Part shown: positions 51,192 through 56,429 of the stretch, in pieces
Layout: the number at the start of each line of letters is the position of its first letter
How positions within the stretch are numbered: the first letter of the stretch is position 1
NCBI GenBank assembly: GCA_034926225.1
Contig: JAYFRF010000005.1
Span: 188,884 to 252,883, forward strand
Direction: 5' to 3'
DNA: 64,000 nt
Source of the DNA: Clostridiaceae bacterium
Lineage (GTDB): Bacteria; Bacillota; Clostridia; Oscillospirales; QAMX01
The notes under the pieces: model-generated
What the model was told of the DNA's origin: nothing
Databases searched by the model: none
What the model saw: only the letters and a program-made list of their open reading frames with translations
Position numbers and translations under genes: made by a program

Positions 51192-52064
51192 TTAGCCCTT
51201 AAGAGAACCGATCATTACGCCCTTCGCGAAGTATTTCTGCAAAAACGGATAGATGATAATCATAGGAAGGATGGACACGATGATCGTCGCGTTCGTCAGT
51301 GTCTCGCCCAATACCAGCGAGTCGCCGGAAAGGGCGTTGGCCTCCTGACTGATCGTAGAACCCGCGATCAGCATCTGCTTTAATAGCACCTGCACGGGGT
51401 ATTTCGCCGTATCGGTCAGATAGATGAACGGCTTCATGTAGGAGTTCCACTCGGCGACCGCGTAGAACAGCGCGATCGTCGTCAGAATCGCCGTCGACAG
51501 CGGGAGCATGATGCGCTGCAGGACGCCCAAGTCGTTTAAACCGTCGATTTTTCCCGCGTCCTCCAGCTCTTTTGGAAGCGACTGGAAGAAGCTCTTCATA
51601 ACGATCAGGTTATACGTGCTGACGCAGCCCATCAGAATCATCAAAAGCCTTGTATTGAGCAGCCCGTAAAGCTTCATCGTCAGGTAAGTCGGGATCATGC
51701 CGCCGTTGAAGAACATCGTGATGACAATCATCGTCATAAAAACGCCGTAGCCCCACAGCCGGTTGCCCTTGCTTAAGGCATATGCACCCGTCGTCGTCAC
51801 GAACATGGCAAGGATCGTATGGAAGAACACGTAAAAAAGCGTATTGCCATAGGCGGGGACGATGTTCGTAGCGCTGAGGATCATCTTATACCCGCCGAAA
51901 TTTAAGCCGATCGGATAGAACGTGACGCTGCCCTGCATCACCGGCAGCGTATCCGACATGGACACGGCGAGAATATGCAGCATCGGGTAAATGATTAATA
52001 ACGCAAACGTAGTAATAAACAGGTATTTTAAAAAAGAGAAAAACGAGAATTTCTGCTGTACCAT
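51192..52064 (-). CDS. Carbohydrate ABC transporter permease (LplC/MalG-like)
   Basis: 290 aa, 6 TM, with the EAA-type loop LPKELEDAGKIDGLNDLGVLQRIMLP. Confidence 0.92.
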   Translation of the reverse strand: MVQQKFSFFSFLKYLFITTFALLIIYPMLHILAVSMSDTLPVMQGSVTFYPIGLNFGGYKMILSATNIVPAYGNTLFYVFFHTILAMFVTTTGAYALSKGNRLWGYGVFMTMIVITMFFNGGMIPTYLTMKLYGLLNTRLLMILMGCVSTYNLIVMKSFFQSLPKELEDAGKIDGLNDLGVLQRIMLPLSTAILTTIALFYAVAEWNSYMKPFIYLTDTAKYPVQVLLKQMLIAGSTISQEANALSGDSLVLGETLTNATIIVSILPMIIIYPFLQKYFAKGVMIGSLKG

Positions 52065-52079
52065 ATTAAAAACCCTCCC

Positions 52080-53027
52080 TTACCACAAGCTGTAGTCCGT
52101 CAGCTTGCGGCTGACGAAGTTGGCCGCCACCACGAACAGCAGGTTAATGAGCGAGTTAAACAGTCCCACGGCCGTCGAGTAACTGAATTGACTGCCGGCA
52201 AGACCCTGCCTGTACACGTAGGTCGAGATGACGTCCGACGTGACAAGGTTCGATGTCGTCTGCATCAGATACGCCTTTTCAAAGCCGACGGACAGCAGCG
52301 AGCCGGTTCTTAACACGAACAACGTTACGATCGTCGGTGCGATGCACGGCAGGGTGATATGCGTAATCTGCTGAAGCTTACCCGCGCCGTCGATCACCGC
52401 GGCCTCATACAGCTCCTGATCGATGGCAGCAAGCGCCGCGTAATAGATAATCGCGCCCCAGCCGGCTTCCTGCCAGATACCCGAAAAGATGTACAGCGAC
52501 CGGAAGTACCGCGGATAAGTAAACACGTCCGCGCGCGGGAACCCGAACAGATTCATGAAATCCATTAAAAGACCGCTGTCGGGGTTGAGCATGCTCTTGA
52601 GCATGCCGACGATAACGACGGTGGAGATAAAGTGCGGCATGTACGAAACGGTCTGGAAGGCTTTTTTCGTCCAGTCCACGCGAACCTCATTGACGACAAG
52701 CGCGAGGAAAATTGTAAACGGAAAGCTGATGATCAACGAATACGCGCTCAGGAGGAACGTATTGCGTACGAGCTTCCAGCTGTTCAGCTCCGTAAAGAAA
52801 CGAATATAATGCTTTGCGCCGACCCATGTGCTGCCGGATACGCCGAGAAACGGTTTGTAATCCATGAACGAAATGGATATGCCCCAAATAGGCACATAGT
52901 TAAACAGAACGAGATAGAGAATGCACGGAAGTACCAGAATCAGCAGATACCGACTGTCGAGGAACTTTTTCTTCCCCGGCGACATCCGCCTGTACCCCGA
53001 GGATACCGGCGTCGCGGCTGTTTTCAT
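52080..53027 (-). CDS. Carbohydrate ABC transporter permease (LplB/MalF-like)
   Basis: IDQELYEAAVIDGAGKLQQITHITLP EAA loop. The start is trimmed to 53027. Confidence 0.9.
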   Translation of the reverse strand: MKTAATPVSSGYRRMSPGKKKFLDSRYLLILVLPCILYLVLFNYVPIWGISISFMDYKPFLGVSGSTWVGAKHYIRFFTELNSWKLVRNTFLLSAYSLIISFPFTIFLALVVNEVRVDWTKKAFQTVSYMPHFISTVVIVGMLKSMLNPDSGLLMDFMNLFGFPRADVFTYPRYFRSLYIFSGIWQEAGWGAIIYYAALAAIDQELYEAAVIDGAGKLQQITHITLPCIAPTIVTLFVLRTGSLLSVGFEKAYLMQTTSNLVTSDVISTYVYRQGLAGSQFSYSTAVGLFNSLINLLFVVAANFVSRKLTDYSLW

Positions 53028-53272
53028 TTCTTTACCCCCCAAAGTCATATTCGCGCGTCCGACAGTCCCGGCGTTTCCGCGGTTCCGGCACAAGCGATGC
53101 CAGGCCGCGGTTCATCGGATTTTCATACCGCTTTTACAAAATGATTATAACAACCCGCCCTAAATTTGTCAATACTTTCCTGCATTCGCAGTTGATTTAT
53201 TTCATTTTCAATATTCTCCCAGTCATTTTTTGTGCCGATTCATTCTTTCCGGCTTTTATTTGTTTTTATATG

Positions 53273-53300
53273 TTGACATTTTTACGGCATATGATATAAT
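53273..53300 (+). promoter_or_regulatory. Sigma-A promoter of the aspS leader
   Basis: TTGACA (53273-78), a 16-nt spacer, then TGATATAAT (extended -10, TATAAT at 53295-53300). Confidence 0.65.
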
Positions 53301-53459
53301 AGATAAAATTTAAGTCGAGGCGATTTTTCATGCTGTTCTTATCACTTTACGACATCGATCGATAGGCGCTTAAGCGTCCCCTTTGCGGAGATGCTCAAGC
53401 GCCATATCGGCGTTGTGTCGCAAGGGGAAAGGACAAATCAGCTCCTTTTATATAAAAAA

Positions 53460-53505
53460 CCCCGTACCGGCACACGTTGCGTTCGTGTAGGTACGGGGTT
53501 TTTAT
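53460..53505 (+). terminator. Leader (attenuator) terminator upstream of aspS
   Basis: CCCCGTACC..ACACG-TTGCGTT-CGTGT..GGTACGGGG followed by TTTTTATTTT. It lies ~150 nt after the promoter and ~100 nt before the aspS start. Confidence 0.75.
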
Positions 53506-53606
53506 TTTCTTTGAGAGGTCGTGGTATCATGCGGCATACAGATTATGCCGAAAGCGATTGGGGTTATTCACCGCATCCATCATACTATATTACGGAGGGC
53601 ATGTAT

Positions 53607-54935
53607 ATGCTTATAATTCAACCCCAATCCGCGGAATATTCCATCGAAGCGTCCGCGCTTTCCCTGTCCATCGGGGAAACGGTCACGCTGCAAGGGATGG
53701 TGTATAAAATCCGCGAAATGTCAGGGTTTGCTTTTATCCTGTTACAGACGCGCACGCAGCTTTGTCAATGCGTCTGGTCACCGGACTTTACCGATTTCCC
53801 GCTGTCCGCGCTGCATCCGGGAGCAGCGGTACGCGTCAAAGGCGCTGTCACGGAGGAGCCGCGCAGCCATACCGGGTATGAACTGCGGCTTCTTTCCTGT
53901 ACCTTACTGAACTCGCCGTCCCGCGAGGAACCTCCCGTCGTCATCAACAATCGCGAAGCCACCGCGGCGCTCGATACGCTGCTCGACTACCGTCCCCTTA
54001 CGCTGCGCAATCAGAAGGAACGCGCAATTTTTGTGATTCAAGCCGCGTTATGCGCCGGATTTCGCCGGTTTTTCATCGAAAACGGCTTCACGGAGATCCA
54101 TTCGCCAAAACTCTGCTCCGGCGGCGCGGAGGGCGGTACGGAGGTCTTCCAGGTAGACTATTTCGGCAAACCCGCCTGCCTCGCGCAGAGTCCGCAGCTT
54201 TATAAACAGATGATGGTCGGCGTTTTCGAGCGCGTCTATGAAATCGCCCCCGTTTTTCGCGCGGAAAAGCACGATACCGCACGCCACATCAACGAGTACA
54301 CCGGTGTCGACTTCGAAATGGGCTTCATCACGAGCTTTCACGATCTCATGCGGATGGAAGCCCGCCTGATCGCGTCTGCGCTTTCCTACGTAGACAGCGT
54401 CTGTCCCGAGGAACTGGCGCTCTTAAAGACTGAGCTTCCCAAAACCGACGCGATTCCCGCCATCCCTTTCGACGAGGCGAAGCTTATCATCGCTGACGCT
54501 TATCATCGCCCCGTCACCGACCCGCTGGACTTTGACCCAGAGGAGGAAAAGCTTTTAGGCGCGCTGATCAAGCAGGAAACCGGCAGCGATTTCGTCTTTG
54601 TCACGCATTATAAAAGCGCAAAGCGGCCGTTTTATACGATGGATACGCCGGGAAACCCCGATGTGACGGAAAGCTTCGACTTGCTTTTCCGCGGCATGGA
54701 AGTCACCACCGGCGGACAGCGCATCCATGATTACGATATGCAGCTTGATAAAATGCGCGCGCGCGGCGTTGACCCCGCACTGTTTGAAAGCTATCTGTCC
54801 GCGCACAAATACGGCCTTCCTCCGCATGGCGGACTCGGCATCGGCCTGGAGCGTTTCACCGCGCGGCTTTTAGGCTTTGACAATGTCCGCCGCGCGACGC
54901 TGTTCCCCCGCGATACGCATCGCTTGGAACCGTAG
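53607..54935 (+). CDS. aspS: Aspartate--tRNA ligase, archaeal/type-2 (possibly non-discriminating)
   Basis: OB anticodon-binding domain. Class IIb motifs FTEIHSPKL, FQVDYFGKPACLAQSPQLYKQ, PVFRAEKHDTARHINEYTGVDFEM and GLPPHGGLGIGLERF. The start is trimmed to the ATG at 53607, 7 nt after GGAGGG. The 5' 72 codons of the track ORF cover the promoter and terminator. Confidence 0.9.
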   Translation: MLIIQPQSAEYSIEASALSLSIGETVTLQGMVYKIREMSGFAFILLQTRTQLCQCVWSPDFTDFPLSALHPGAAVRVKGAVTEEPRSHTGYELRLLSCTLLNSPSREEPPVVINNREATAALDTLLDYRPLTLRNQKERAIFVIQAALCAGFRRFFIENGFTEIHSPKLCSGGAEGGTEVFQVDYFGKPACLAQSPQLYKQMMVGVFERVYEIAPVFRAEKHDTARHINEYTGVDFEMGFITSFHDLMRMEARLIASALSYVDSVCPEELALLKTELPKTDAIPAIPFDEAKLIIADAYHRPVTDPLDFDPEEEKLLGALIKQETGSDFVFVTHYKSAKRPFYTMDTPGNPDVTESFDLLFRGMEVTTGGQRIHDYDMQLDKMRARGVDPALFESYLSAHKYGLPPHGGLGIGLERFTARLLGFDNVRRATLFPRDTHRLEP

Positions 54936-54942
54936 GCGATAA

Positions 54943-54981
54943 GACAAAGCTCGAACCGCCACACGCGGTTCGAGCTTTGTC
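54943..54981. terminator. Bidirectional terminator between aspS and the VOC gene
   Basis: Perfect 17-bp stem GACAAAGCTCGAACCGC-CACAC-GCGGTTCGAGCTTTGTC. Confidence 0.8.
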
Positions 54982-54982
54982 G

Positions 54983-55378
54983 TTAGGCTTTTTCGTGAAA
55001 GTATAATGCCCATGGAATGCCGCATTTGTCCGTCACGAGCGCCAATGCCGTCGCCCACGGATATGGGCCCCCGAGCGAATAATTCCGCCCTTCTTGTATT
55101 AAAACGCCATACGCCTTACGAAAATCACTCTCGTTTTCAAAGTGAATTTCGCAGACCATCACATTTTCCGAGACCCTTTCGACTTTATTCCCCGGGCAGA
55201 GTAAAATTTCAAATCCGTTAATTTCCATCAATATATGGATATCTTCCCCGTCCGGCGGCGTTGATTCGGAAATTTTTCTCGCGTTGAAAGCTTGCTGATA
55301 TAAGGAAAAAGCTTCTATTCTTTCTTCGTTTGTACTGCCTATGCAGAAAGCCATCTTAAATTGTGGGTACTGCGGCAT
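54983..55378 (-). CDS. VOC (glyoxalase/PhnB-like) family protein
   Basis: 131 aa. The pattern ...IHILMEINGFEILLCPG... and C-terminal DKCGIPWALYF is typical of PhnB-like VOC proteins. The start is trimmed to 55378 (AGGAGG SD). Confidence 0.75.
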   Translation of the reverse strand: MPQYPQFKMAFCIGSTNEERIEAFSLYQQAFNARKISESTPPDGEDIHILMEINGFEILLCPGNKVERVSENVMVCEIHFENESDFRKAYGVLIQEGRNYSLGGPYPWATALALVTDKCGIPWALYFHEKA

Positions 55379-55453
55379 AGCGATCCTCCTCATAGCTTAT
55401 AGATTTCATCGTCGCCGTCTTTTGAATAAAAAACCATCGCAGTGTCCGCTGTG

Positions 55454-55486
55454 AAAAACGGCGGCGGGACAAGCTCCCGCCGCCGT
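55454..55486 (-). terminator. Rho-independent terminator
   Basis: On the minus strand: ACGGCGGCGGGA-GCTTG-TCCCGCCGCCGT followed by TTTTTCAC. Confidence 0.75.
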
Positions 55487-55493
55487 AAACGGA

Positions 55494-56429
55494 CTATTCC
55501 ACCAGCTTATTGACAAGTGCCGCCACCGCCGCGAAATCGCCCGGCTTCGGCGCCTTTACATCGTCGAGAATACACCAGGTCTCCACATGATCGACCTTCT
55601 TCCCCGGTTCGACCATGCGCAGCGGGGAAAGAGACTCCATTTCCAGGAAGCTTGCGTTGGTATAGGTTTCAAAATTCATACCGCCGTCGGGGTATACCGC
55701 GCCTTCCACGAAGGGCAGGCGCTTCACGAACAACGCGCCGCGATAGGCATAGGCGGCCCAGCCCCGACGGTTATCGAGACCCAGCTTGAACGCCGTCTGC
55801 GCGCGCTTGTCCTGACGGAGCGTGATGTATTCCTTCCCCCAGGCCACGCGTTTGTCGCTCATATCGCTGTACGGCCAGAGCGCCATCACACGGTTGCCGA
55901 GAAGGCCCGTATTATGCCGGTTCTGCGGGATGATCTCGACGCCGCCGGGGGTCAGCACGGACAGCGCCCACACGGCGAACTCCTGCGGTACCTCCGCGAT
56001 GTTGGTCACCGAATTGGTCACGGTCACCTGCGTGCCGTACTCCTCAAGCGCGACGGTCAGTTCCATCGTAATACCGTTTTTACGCTGCGGCGGCGGGGTA
56101 AAGGTGACGCCGGTATTGGAAATGGCATAGCGAACACGGGTATTGTCGGGATAGTAGCAGCGTGGCAGCGATTCCGGGCTAATCCAGATGCGGTGGCCGC
56201 CGTAGATATACCAGGCCGCGCCGCGTCCGTAGTAGTCGGACATCGCCTTCTCGTCATGGACAATGGAACGCGCGCGATCCTCGAAAAAGAAATTCGATCC
56301 GCCCCGCAGGGAATAACCGATCACGCGCGGACCGATATCGAGGGTCACATAGACCTCCGCGAAAGCGTTTTCAATCTTTAAGCAGCGCCCGAAATTCTTA
56401 TAGCGAACCTCGCTGTAGCTGATGGCCAT
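55494..56429 (-). CDS. Conserved hypothetical protein (beta-rich; possibly mutarotase-like fold)
   Basis: 311-aa ORF with coding-like composition and tight spacing to the upstream gene. I cannot name a diagnostic motif. Confidence 0.55.
   Translation of the reverse strand: MAISYSEVRYKNFGRCLKIENAFAEVYVTLDIGPRVIGYSLRGGSNFFFEDRARSIVHDEKAMSDYYGRGAAWYIYGGHRIWISPESLPRCYYPDNTRVRYAISNTGVTFTPPPQRKNGITMELTVALEEYGTQVTVTNSVTNIAEVPQEFAVWALSVLTPGGVEIIPQNRHNTGLLGNRVMALWPYSDMSDKRVAWGKEYITLRQDKRAQTAFKLGLDNRRGWAAYAYRGALFVKRLPFVEGAVYPDGGMNFETYTNASFLEMESLSPLRMVEPGKKVDHVETWCILDDVKAPKPGDFAAVAALVNKLVE

Follow-up and report, generated by a model that had tools for sequence, protein, structure and literature searches.

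Aminoacyl-tRNA synthetase genes in Firmicutes are T-box territory, and attenuation by leader peptides is familiar from the amino-acid operons of Proteobacteria. We know of no leader-peptide attenuator for aspartate. Leader open reading frames (ORFs) can also govern translation: in attenuation of the ermC/ermB type a stalled ribosome unmasks a sequestered Shine-Dalgarno sequence (SD), and in the anti-TRAP operon of Bacillus subtilis a T-box is reportedly followed by a leader peptide, rtpLP (Chen and Yanofsky 2004, as cited in PMC4027176), with hungry Trp codons, where the position of the ribosome is said to decide over the next SD. For Bacillus paralogs of hisS (hisZ and hisS*), the available part of Naville and Gautheret (2010, PMC2965389) describes a 'regular' leader peptide with His codons that replaces the T-box. 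The subject here is the leader (positions 53273 to 53606) of aspS, the aspartyl-tRNA synthetase (AspRS) gene, in a 64,000-nt stretch of DNA from a Clostridiaceae bacterium (GenBank assembly GCA_034926225.1, contig JAYFRF010000005.1, positions 188,884 to 252,883 of the forward strand); the whole stretch is called the window below. This leader is likely to be a ribosome-based sensor of charged tRNA-Asp, built from two modules, and not an RNA that binds a tRNA or a metabolite. A full-text literature search, whose incomplete coverage makes absence no proof, turned up neither an Asp-codon leader nor another kind of leader peptide described for aspS.

The leader was compared by blastn with 80 genome loci encoding AspRS relatives, and the part downstream of the terminator proved to be its best-conserved piece. 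A common architecture was recognised in the upstream regions of loci whose AspRS is 55-63% identical to that of the window, and further loci were added from the protein database and from metagenomes. This brings the number of distinct related leaders of aspS in Clostridia to 23, counting that of the window and that of its nearest relative, L081 (AspRS 77% identical); the hosts belong to Oscillospiraceae, Acutalibacteraceae, Christensenellales, some Lachnospiraceae and others. Every one of these leaders lies directly 5' of aspS, while the neighbour on the other side may be an ABC permease, LysM/CAP, metallophosphatase, PIN, MCP or FAD-binding gene. Such constant linkage to aspS, with a changing upstream neighbour, is the signature of an aspS cis-regulatory element. 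Two modules recur across the family, module A (53330-53509 in the window) and module B (53507-53561 onward). They can be separated: L171 (428-700) has module A alone, that is, the first upstream ORF (uORF), helices and terminator, and L088 (600-810) has module B alone, directly behind its own promoter. The metagenome scan, which was protein-guided, returned mostly Lachnospiraceae loci of ~51% identity, an identity level like that of the genome loci that bear T-boxes; only L086-L090 were useful.

Module A has the following parts in the window.

53317..53320, + strand: Shine-Dalgarno sequence GAGG of the first upstream ORF (uORF1), 9 nt before the ATG at 53330
53330..53365, + strand: uORF1, MLFLSLYDIDR-stop, with Asp codons GAC (53351-53) and GAU (53357-59) and the stop codon UAG (53363-65) at the foot of hairpin P1
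53345..53364, + strand: segment 1a, the last part of uORF1 with both Asp codons; forms a helix with segment 3 (53404-53426) at -16.4 kcal/mol
53364..53404, + strand: hairpin P1, segment 1b (53365-53380) with segment 2 (53386-53403); -24.8 kcal/mol with the upper stem
53380..53403, + strand: segment 2, the loop and 3' half of P1; alternative pairing with segment 3 (53408-53427) at -21.2 kcal/mol
53404..53431, + strand: segment 3, the pivot, family motif GUGUUGUGCCYGUG; its partners are 1a, 2 and the 5' arm of the terminator
53460..53509, + strand: intrinsic terminator, hairpin 53460-53498 (39 nt; -22.8 kcal/mol) and U-tract 53499-53509
53408-53427 with 53460-53480, + strand: antiterminator 3:4, segment 3 with the terminator 5' arm and the start of its loop; duplex -23.7 kcal/mol

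The case for translation of uORF1 comes from its reading frame. An SD-like motif stands ahead of the ATG in 22 of 22 leaders analysed. An ORF with SD and ATG reaches the block of Asp codons in the Asp frame in all 22, against one and none of the 22 in the other two frames, which serve as the chance control. The peptides are 11-27 codons long and unrelated in their N-terminal residues, so that the Asp block is their sole conserved feature. Most leaders have DDD here; D-x-D stands in the window, L081, L001, L008, L083 and L070, and L082 has DD. In all 23 module A leaders the block falls at or near the C-terminal end, in most of them one codon before the stop. GAC and GAU replace each other synonymously within the block, as they do between the window and L081, and the distance from the first Asp codon to P1 is fixed at 13-14 nt across the family. 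About half of the peptides (L002, L004, L005, L007, L008, L010, L083, L090, L168, L171 and L173) also carry an Asn codon two codons ahead of the first Asp, N-x-D-D-D, where the window has Leu. The sensor could also respond to tRNA-Asn, which is charged by the same enzyme, or the codon could reflect a constraint on RNA pairing.

The leader is also more structured than its composition demands. The region 53305-53615 folds at -112.5 kcal/mol, compared with -83.2 +/- 4.8 kcal/mol for 100 dinucleotide shuffles, none of which does as well (z = -6.2); the structure therefore exceeds chance. Individual helices were examined in alignment A1, which holds the collinear parts of module A. Helix 1a:3 is paired to 81.8% in the family, against 27-51% for slid partners of the whole structure tested (1a:3 with P1). 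Helix 2:3 is paired to 78.5%, against 31-52% when slid, with 21 cells changed on both sides and a covariation score reached by none of 500 shuffles; in the window this pairing takes in CCCCUUUGCG/CGCAAGGGG. The family core of P1 is AGCGCUUG/CAAGCGCU, with the UAG stop in its foot. Each of its eight core pairs is kept in 17-22 of 22 leaders, with compensatory replacements of GC by AU (three times), of CG by UA and of UA by CG. The three pairings of segment 3 (1a:3, 2:3 and 3:4) share nucleotides, as do P1 and 2:3, and so exclude each other.

For the antiterminator, the evidence is energetic complementarity. Segment 3 binds the terminator arm of its own leader with a mean of -15.7 kcal/mol, versus -12.5 kcal/mol for foreign arms, and the mean z against shuffled arms is -2.1. 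In the window the corresponding values are -21.6 kcal/mol and z = -2.8, and the window's own arm ranks second of 21 among family arms. Terminators were located in 21 of 22 leaders scanned; in L083 the run of T is interrupted, and the terminator was placed by hand. Leaders L004 (2050-2151) and L170 (425-593) have tandem terminators, the first of which is built from the 5' side of the P1 loop and the segment that follows segment 3, then a U-tract, and encloses the 2:3 pairing. With A6 upstream and its U-tract downstream, the window terminator (53454-53509) looks bidirectional, and there is no nearby convergent gene on the - strand for it to serve.

Much of module A had been picked out in a preliminary description of the locus, made from the letters alone. 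Its TTGACA-16 promoter is found again as TTGACA-16-TATAAT with TG at 53273-53300 (12/12), and its uORF of 11 codons with two Asp codons as MLFLSLYDIDR* at 53330-53365, with the ATG 9 nt after GAGG. The helix it placed at the uORF1 stop, GGCGCTTAAGC (53365-75) with GCTCAAGCGCC (53393-403), forms with one unpaired A and, together with the upper stem, about -24.8 kcal/mol. The alternative pairing of CCCCTTTGCG (53378-87) with CGCAAGGGG (53419-27), at about -17 kcal/mol, was also seen correctly, and these competing helices belong to the covarying alternatives. The strong terminator is confirmed as the -22.8 kcal/mol hairpin at 53460-53498, after which comes UUUUUAUUUU.

Sequence conservation in the P1 core (AGCGCUUG/CAAGCGCU) and in segment 3 exceeds what pairing alone needs, which would suit a different explanation: a trans-acting ligand (a small molecule, AspRS, or tRNA-Asp at the GAY in the module B loop) may bind the conserved helices and decide on termination, with the uORFs incidental. 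For autoregulation of the AspRS type, in which a synthetase binds its own leader, E. coli thrS is the precedent. We consider such a ligand site very unlikely here. The P1 loop ranges from ~14 to ~48 nt and has no conserved junction or loop nucleotides, no Rfam family matches, and the bias of 22/22 versus 1/22 and 0/22 among reading frames is hard to explain without translation. What module B adds to this question is given below.

A consistent mechanism for module A can be proposed. A strong promoter would give rise to a leader of ~200 nt, on which uORF1 is translated while RNA polymerase advances. If no ribosome is present, 1a:3 and P1 would form, the terminator would follow, and transcription would stop at ~53505. 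A ribosome that has moved on to the UAG in the foot of P1 would cover segment 1b, and segment 2 would then capture segment 3, so that the terminator would again form. When Asp-tRNA(Asp) is scarce, the ribosome would wait at the first Asp codon with its front edge just short of P1. P1 would stay closed and 1a would be covered; segment 3, left without a partner, would grip the 5' arm of the terminator and allow read-through into aspS.

The positions of the ribosome were imitated by masking 30 nt, in a model that is thermodynamic and not kinetic. Equilibrium folding was replaced by the folding of transcripts cut after the terminator 5' arm, which is closer to the moment of decision. In these cut transcripts the 5' arm is paired, as a mean of 21 leaders, at 0.68 with the first Asp codon in the A site, at 0.47 with the stop codon there, and at 0.51 with no ribosome; the window gives 0.74, 0.37 and 0.52. 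In 18 of the 21 leaders a ribosome at the first Asp codon leaves the arm more paired than one at the stop does. Module A presents the sequence-level marks of a leader-peptide attenuator, namely an ORF with a ribosome-binding site, clustered cognate codons, a terminator and mutually exclusive helices; its stall geometry is a modelled one.

Transcription of module A would start from the following element.

53273..53300, + strand: promoter of sigma-70 type, TTGACA-16-TGaTATAAT, with an extended -10; 12/12 hexamer positions matched and TG present

It is the top-ranked + strand site within 52000-56000, both its -35 and its -10 are kept in the closest relative, L081, and the sequence puts the transcript start probably near 53307. 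A perfect promoter and a strong terminator make a self-contained unit of ~200 nt, and one may ask if 53273-53509 is an independent small gene, for a small RNA or a protein of 11 amino acids, with aspS served by another promoter or by unregulated read-through. The persistence of the terminator in equilibrium folds (see below) would fit that proposal, and terminated attenuator RNAs can act in trans elsewhere, as the accessible part of a report on rnTrpL indicates (PMC6614838). Several facts make an independent gene highly improbable. Linkage of the unit to aspS is constant and its other neighbours change, the peptide is unconserved except for its Asp codons, and the covarying alternative helices overlap the terminator. 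We found no promoter-like site on the + strand between 53310 and 53600. A role in trans, moreover, would add to the role in cis and not replace it.

Module B and the start of the gene are arranged as follows.

53513..53527, + strand: extended Shine-Dalgarno sequence of the second upstream ORF (uORF2), GAGAGGUCGUGGUAU, family consensus GAAAGGnnGUGAUC in alignment A2; duplex with the 16S tail -14.7 kcal/mol
53529..53558, + strand: conserved core of uORF2, M-R-H-T-D-Y-A-E-S-D, with AUG at 53529, Asp-5 as GAU at 53541-43 and Asp-10 as GAU at 53556-58
53532..53550, + strand: uORF2 hairpin, CGGCAUA / UAUGCCG, 53532-38 with 53544-50, and the Asp-5 codon in its loop
53594..53598, + strand: aspS Shine-Dalgarno sequence GGAGG, as read in the sequence; better spaced to ATG 53607 than to ATG 53601
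53607..54935, + strand: aspS, encoding an archaeal-type non-discriminating aspartate--tRNA(Asn) ligase of 442 aa (NF003483, 524 bits; P0001)

Alignment A2 covers 55 nt around 53507-53561 and is free of gaps in 22 leaders. The sequence GAAAGGnnGUGAUC lies ~8 nt ahead of the uORF2 start codon throughout the family. Duplexes were computed with a 16S 3' tail that we take, from general knowledge and not from the window genome, to be the canonical Firmicute sequence. The uORF2 SDs reach a mean of -17.1 kcal/mol with this tail, the aspS SDs a mean of -10.4 kcal/mol, and random 21-mers of the window a background of -5.1 +/- 2.5 kcal/mol. The family frame is M-[R/G]-H-x-D-x-[A/V]-x-x-D, which begins with ATG in 20 leaders and with GTG in three (L004, L005 and L070). 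Of 23 leaders, 22 keep Asp-5 and Asp-10 in frame (GAU or GAC); L083 has its second GAU out of frame through a 1-nt deletion. The hairpin is paired to 97% in the family, five of its six pairs show compensatory changes, and none of 500 shuffles reaches its score. Its loop is 7 nt long in the 6-bp family alignment, and a seventh pair is possible in the window.

In most relatives an anti-SD follows right after Asp-10. These 24 nt are energetically complementary to the aspS SD region of their own leader, with a mean z of -2.3 and a rank of 1-3 among 23 in 15 leaders. In about 12 of 22 leaders, the folds have the aspS SD masked in free RNA (probability of being unpaired <=0.2), opened by a ribosome at Asp-10, and opened slightly at most by one at Asp-5. 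The uORF2 stop codon lies 19-42 nt ahead of the aspS ATG in most relatives. A ribosome waiting at Asp-10 would, in these leaders, cover the anti-SD and free the ribosome-binding site of aspS. Module B of the window retains both Asp codons along with the SD, start and hairpin but has lost the anti-SD and the stop, which leaves its contribution there uncertain.

The uORF2 N-terminus M-R-[H/N]-x-D resembles residues 6-10 of ErmBL, a macrolide-sensing leader, which we take to be MRNVD. ErmBL stalls at Asp-10, according to the part of the source available (PMC8274638). The likeness is probably coincidence, because the uORF2 residues in question covary with the RNA hairpin.

The module B hairpin bears on the ligand site considered above, since tRNA-Asp would meet it at the invariant GA(Y) of the 7-nt loop. 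That loop, however, holds the codon GAY and not the anticodon GUC, and is therefore not a tRNA mimic; the positions beside GAY are unconserved, no purine is conserved after the codon, and the GUGRU upstream in A2 shows no conserved UGGN. Kissing of tRNA-Asp with the uORF2 loop and binding of AspRS to a tRNA mimic there were set aside on the same grounds of codon and flanks, and are kept only as a low-probability case. A related proposal, which we hold to be quite improbable, makes the hairpin itself the sensor, in direct contact with the tRNA-Asp anticodon or with AspRS. It draws on the covariation, on the invariant GAY in the 7-nt loop and on the unusually strong ribosome-docking site next to it. 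If true, the hairpin would be a minimal, T-box-independent means of reading tRNA status at the start of translation, usable with or without an attenuator (module B stands alone in L088).

Covariance models made from the family, R1 for module B and R2 for module A, each have a single match in the 64-kb window: R1 at 53507-53561 with 64.3 bits, and R2 at 53339-53426 with 39.9 bits. Both models also found L070, a leader outside the training set. On inspection L070 has a uORF1 that ends D-A-D-A-stop, P1, segment 3, a terminator, and a GTG-initiated uORF2 with Asp-5 and Asp-10, hairpin and anti-SD.

A divergent or tandem T-box that binds uncharged tRNA was the other option left open in the preliminary description. 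The idea has its reasons, for Firmicute aminoacyl-tRNA synthetase genes usually carry T-boxes, orthologs of the window's aspS among them, and GTGGTATC bears a faint likeness to the GGUGGUACC of a T-box. At the Rfam gathering score, though, neither a T-box nor any other family is found in the whole 64-kb window, and nothing is found in twenty orthologous loci. Model RF00230 (T-box) searched at E<10 over both strands of 53150-53750 gives no match. As a positive control, the same model matches the ortholog leaders L011, L013, L016, L018 and L041 of Lachnospiraceae with 57-84 bits and E 1e-10 to 1e-17. The T-boxes of L013 (2596-2832), L018 (2412-2664) and L041 (2580-2813) score 76-84 bits, those of L011 and L016 57 and 71 bits; a default scan misses them because these scores are under the Rfam gathering cut-off of 93. 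RF00230 works on the orthologs and is blank on the leader of the window, and therefore a T-box regulates these AspRS orthologs but not the aspS of the window. Neither a Stem I, nor a specifier loop, nor an antiterminator bulge was seen in the family alignments, and we give the T-box practically no chance. The specifier of the T-boxes in L013, L018 and L041, read in the alignment, is GGGAAC-A, where AAC stands for Asn and not for Asp. To judge from these sequences, control by tRNA charging would be an ancestral, or else a parallel, solution for aspS. Matches to the Rfam families Thr_leader, trpB, STnc370 and ClpQY_promoter at E 0.1-8 are not meaningful, as only the terminator hairpin and tracts of U or A align.

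The T-box look-alike has another explanation. GTGGTATC lies downstream of the terminator, and the relatives read GUGAU, GUGUU, GUGAC or GUGGU in its place. The longer stretch that had been called 'T-box-reminiscent', GTGGTATCATGCGG, is indeed located at 53521-34, and is the extended SD and start codon of uORF2, a second Asp-codon ORF that the preliminary description did not recognise. Its proposed partner CCGCAT lies at 53571-76, 2 nt away from the 53573-78 given there, and the pairing of AUGCGG with CCGCAU is possible, but it falls outside the minimum-energy fold and was not seen at the corresponding place in the relatives read. The broader claim of transcription attenuation without T-box architecture has held up, with no T-box at E<10, a conserved uORF1 and covarying helices. 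So has the first of the two options, an Asp-codon leader peptide, as the uORF1 Asp codons are conserved in every module A leader; the T-box option is rejected, RF00230 being blank at E<10 where it detects the ortholog T-boxes. Two computational outcomes had been named there that would refute the idea, and neither occurred: the Rfam scan gives no T-box that would explain the helices, and the uORF with its Asp codons is kept in every related module A leader. Covariation analysis of orthologous leaders, also suggested there, finds that 2:3 and the uORF2 hairpin covary (0/500 shuffles each).

A number of observations speak against the two-module sensor, and we collect them here. As the 23 leaders share kinship, counts over leaders are not independent. 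The window is not a typical member: its module A has the lowest score (39.9 bits) in the alignment from which R2 was made, with only the later-found L070 lower, its uORF1 has two Asp codons rather than three, and by sequence its copy would rank as the most divergent of the family. The 3:4 antiterminator is backed by energy statistics and not by column-by-column covariation, and is weak in L004, L006, L008 and L170. In equilibrium folds the terminator persists in most leaders whatever the ribosome position (0.87-0.94 in the window). It is lost with the first Asp codon in the A site only in L002, L008 and L090, and in L001 at the first and third; in L009 it falls to 0.39. The switch is thus visible only in truncated, co-transcriptional folds, where the separation in the window is modest. 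Stalling of the ribosome, read-through, a terminated RNA of ~200 nt, the direction of the switch and an effect in vivo are what we infer from these patterns.

For module B the contrary observations are more specific. The compensatory changes in the uORF2 hairpin alter amino acids 3, 6 and 7, so selection acts on the RNA and part of the 'peptide' conservation is at RNA level. No anti-SD was found in module B of the window (z +1.3, rank 19/23) or of L081 (rank 23/23). The aspS SD of the window is partly paired in free RNA (probability of being unpaired 0.31), and a ribosome at Asp-10 lowers this to 0.12 and does not open it; in L081, too, a ribosome at Asp-10 leaves the SD unopened in the folds. 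The aspS SD region of the window is weakly paired, in the minimum-energy fold, with the CUUUG tail of the terminator and with the region of the uORF2 SD. The uORF2 of the window has no stop of its own and continues in frame into aspS (ORF 53529-54935, 468 codons), and that of L081 overlaps the aspS start out of frame.

These observations would be expected if module A alone were an attenuator and module B some other initiation element, either a strong ribosome-binding site of standby or enhancer type, stabilised by the hairpin, or a site for some factor, whose GAY triplets are kept for RNA reasons. The covariation at the cost of encoded amino acids, the missing anti-SD and missing effect of Asp-10 in the window and L081, the out-of-frame second GAU of L083, and the run of the frame into aspS in the window and L083 all agree with such a role. 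We nevertheless judge it unlikely. The start codon is only ever ATG or GTG, and its spacing from the exceptionally strong SD does not vary. The two GAY triplets keep to the frame in 22/23 leaders and show synonymous variation only. The anti-SD begins right after Asp-10, the position that opens the SD far more than Asp-5 does, in ~12 leaders. For the window itself, then, we are fairly confident of module A, and unsure that module B still regulates there.

An AspRS lengthened by fusion of uORF2 to aspS was entertained and dropped: the in-frame run-on occurs in 2 of 23 leaders (the window and L083), about what chance predicts for frame and absence of a stop, most relatives have a stop before aspS, and no function is proposed. 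The likely start of aspS is the ATG at 53607, 8 nt past GGAGG, and the ATG at 53601 is the less likely alternative; a public protein of 442 aa, P0001, is 100% identical to the window AspRS and begins at ATG 53607. A mechanical ORF list gives a 514-codon ORF at 53391-54935 (+), because the frame of aspS stays open upstream across uORF2 and into the terminator, and an automatic gene caller could choose a start too far upstream owing to this open frame. On the - strand, another extended -10 promoter of perfect consensus (TTGACA-17-TATAAT with TG, 53144-53172) faces ABC-transporter permease genes at 53093-52080 and 52064-51192. As it stands opposite the + strand promoter at 53273-53300, the spacer 53094-53329 is a divergent promoter region.

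The aspS leaders appear to form a conserved family that has not been described, with a known type of regulation and not a new kind. An Asn T-box in Lachnospiraceae and Asp uORFs in many Oscillospirales-type Clostridia would mean that the sensing device was swapped before the same gene. The change of signal from Asn to Asp bears on the two jobs of a non-discriminating AspRS in bacteria that make Asn-tRNA indirectly. Aspartate would join the few amino acids known to be sensed through hungry-codon leaders, and the family would also provide an attenuator of five segments and a detachable second uORF module. With R1 and R2, such leaders can be annotated in gut and bioreactor Clostridia, where they are now unannotated intergenic sequence.

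Of the classical systems, E. coli pheST (pheM) and the trp, his, leu, thr and ilv attenuators share with module A a leader ORF with cognate codons, mutually exclusive helices, an intrinsic terminator and, in the mechanism proposed here, a stalled ribosome that picks the antiterminator; pheST is closer still in that the regulated gene is itself an aminoacyl-tRNA synthetase. There is no sequence or Rfam relationship to any of them, the amino acid is Asp, and the hosts are Clostridia and not Proteobacteria. The aspS pivot, unlike that of the classical attenuators, has three partners, which makes five segments instead of four; the foot of P1 contains the leader stop codon, and a second uORF module follows the terminator. 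The leader peptides of hisZ and hisS* likewise stand in the place of a T-box before a gene of an aminoacyl-tRNA synthetase family in Firmicutes, but differ in amino acid, gene family and bacterial class and have no sequence similarity, and the available part of that report does not mention a second, translational module.

In its two proposed tiers the aspS leader is like that of anti-TRAP and rtpLP, with transcription antitermination first and then a leader ORF whose ribosome position frees the next SD, and like the erm leaders in that most family members are predicted to unmask the SD with a ribosome at Asp-10. Unlike these, both of its tiers are leader ORFs, with no T-box and with Asp codons in place of Trp codons or a drug, and uORF2 has an extended SD and a covarying hairpin whose loop holds the first Asp codon. 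Sequestration of the SD is likewise found in most relatives but not in the window copy, which has no anti-SD. The T-box of the orthologs (RF00230) occupies the same position before the same gene and presumably has the same purpose, more expression as tRNA charging falls. It binds uncharged tRNA directly, with the specifier AAC (Asn) in L013, L018 and L041, whereas the leader in the window would reach that end with ribosomes and Asp codons.

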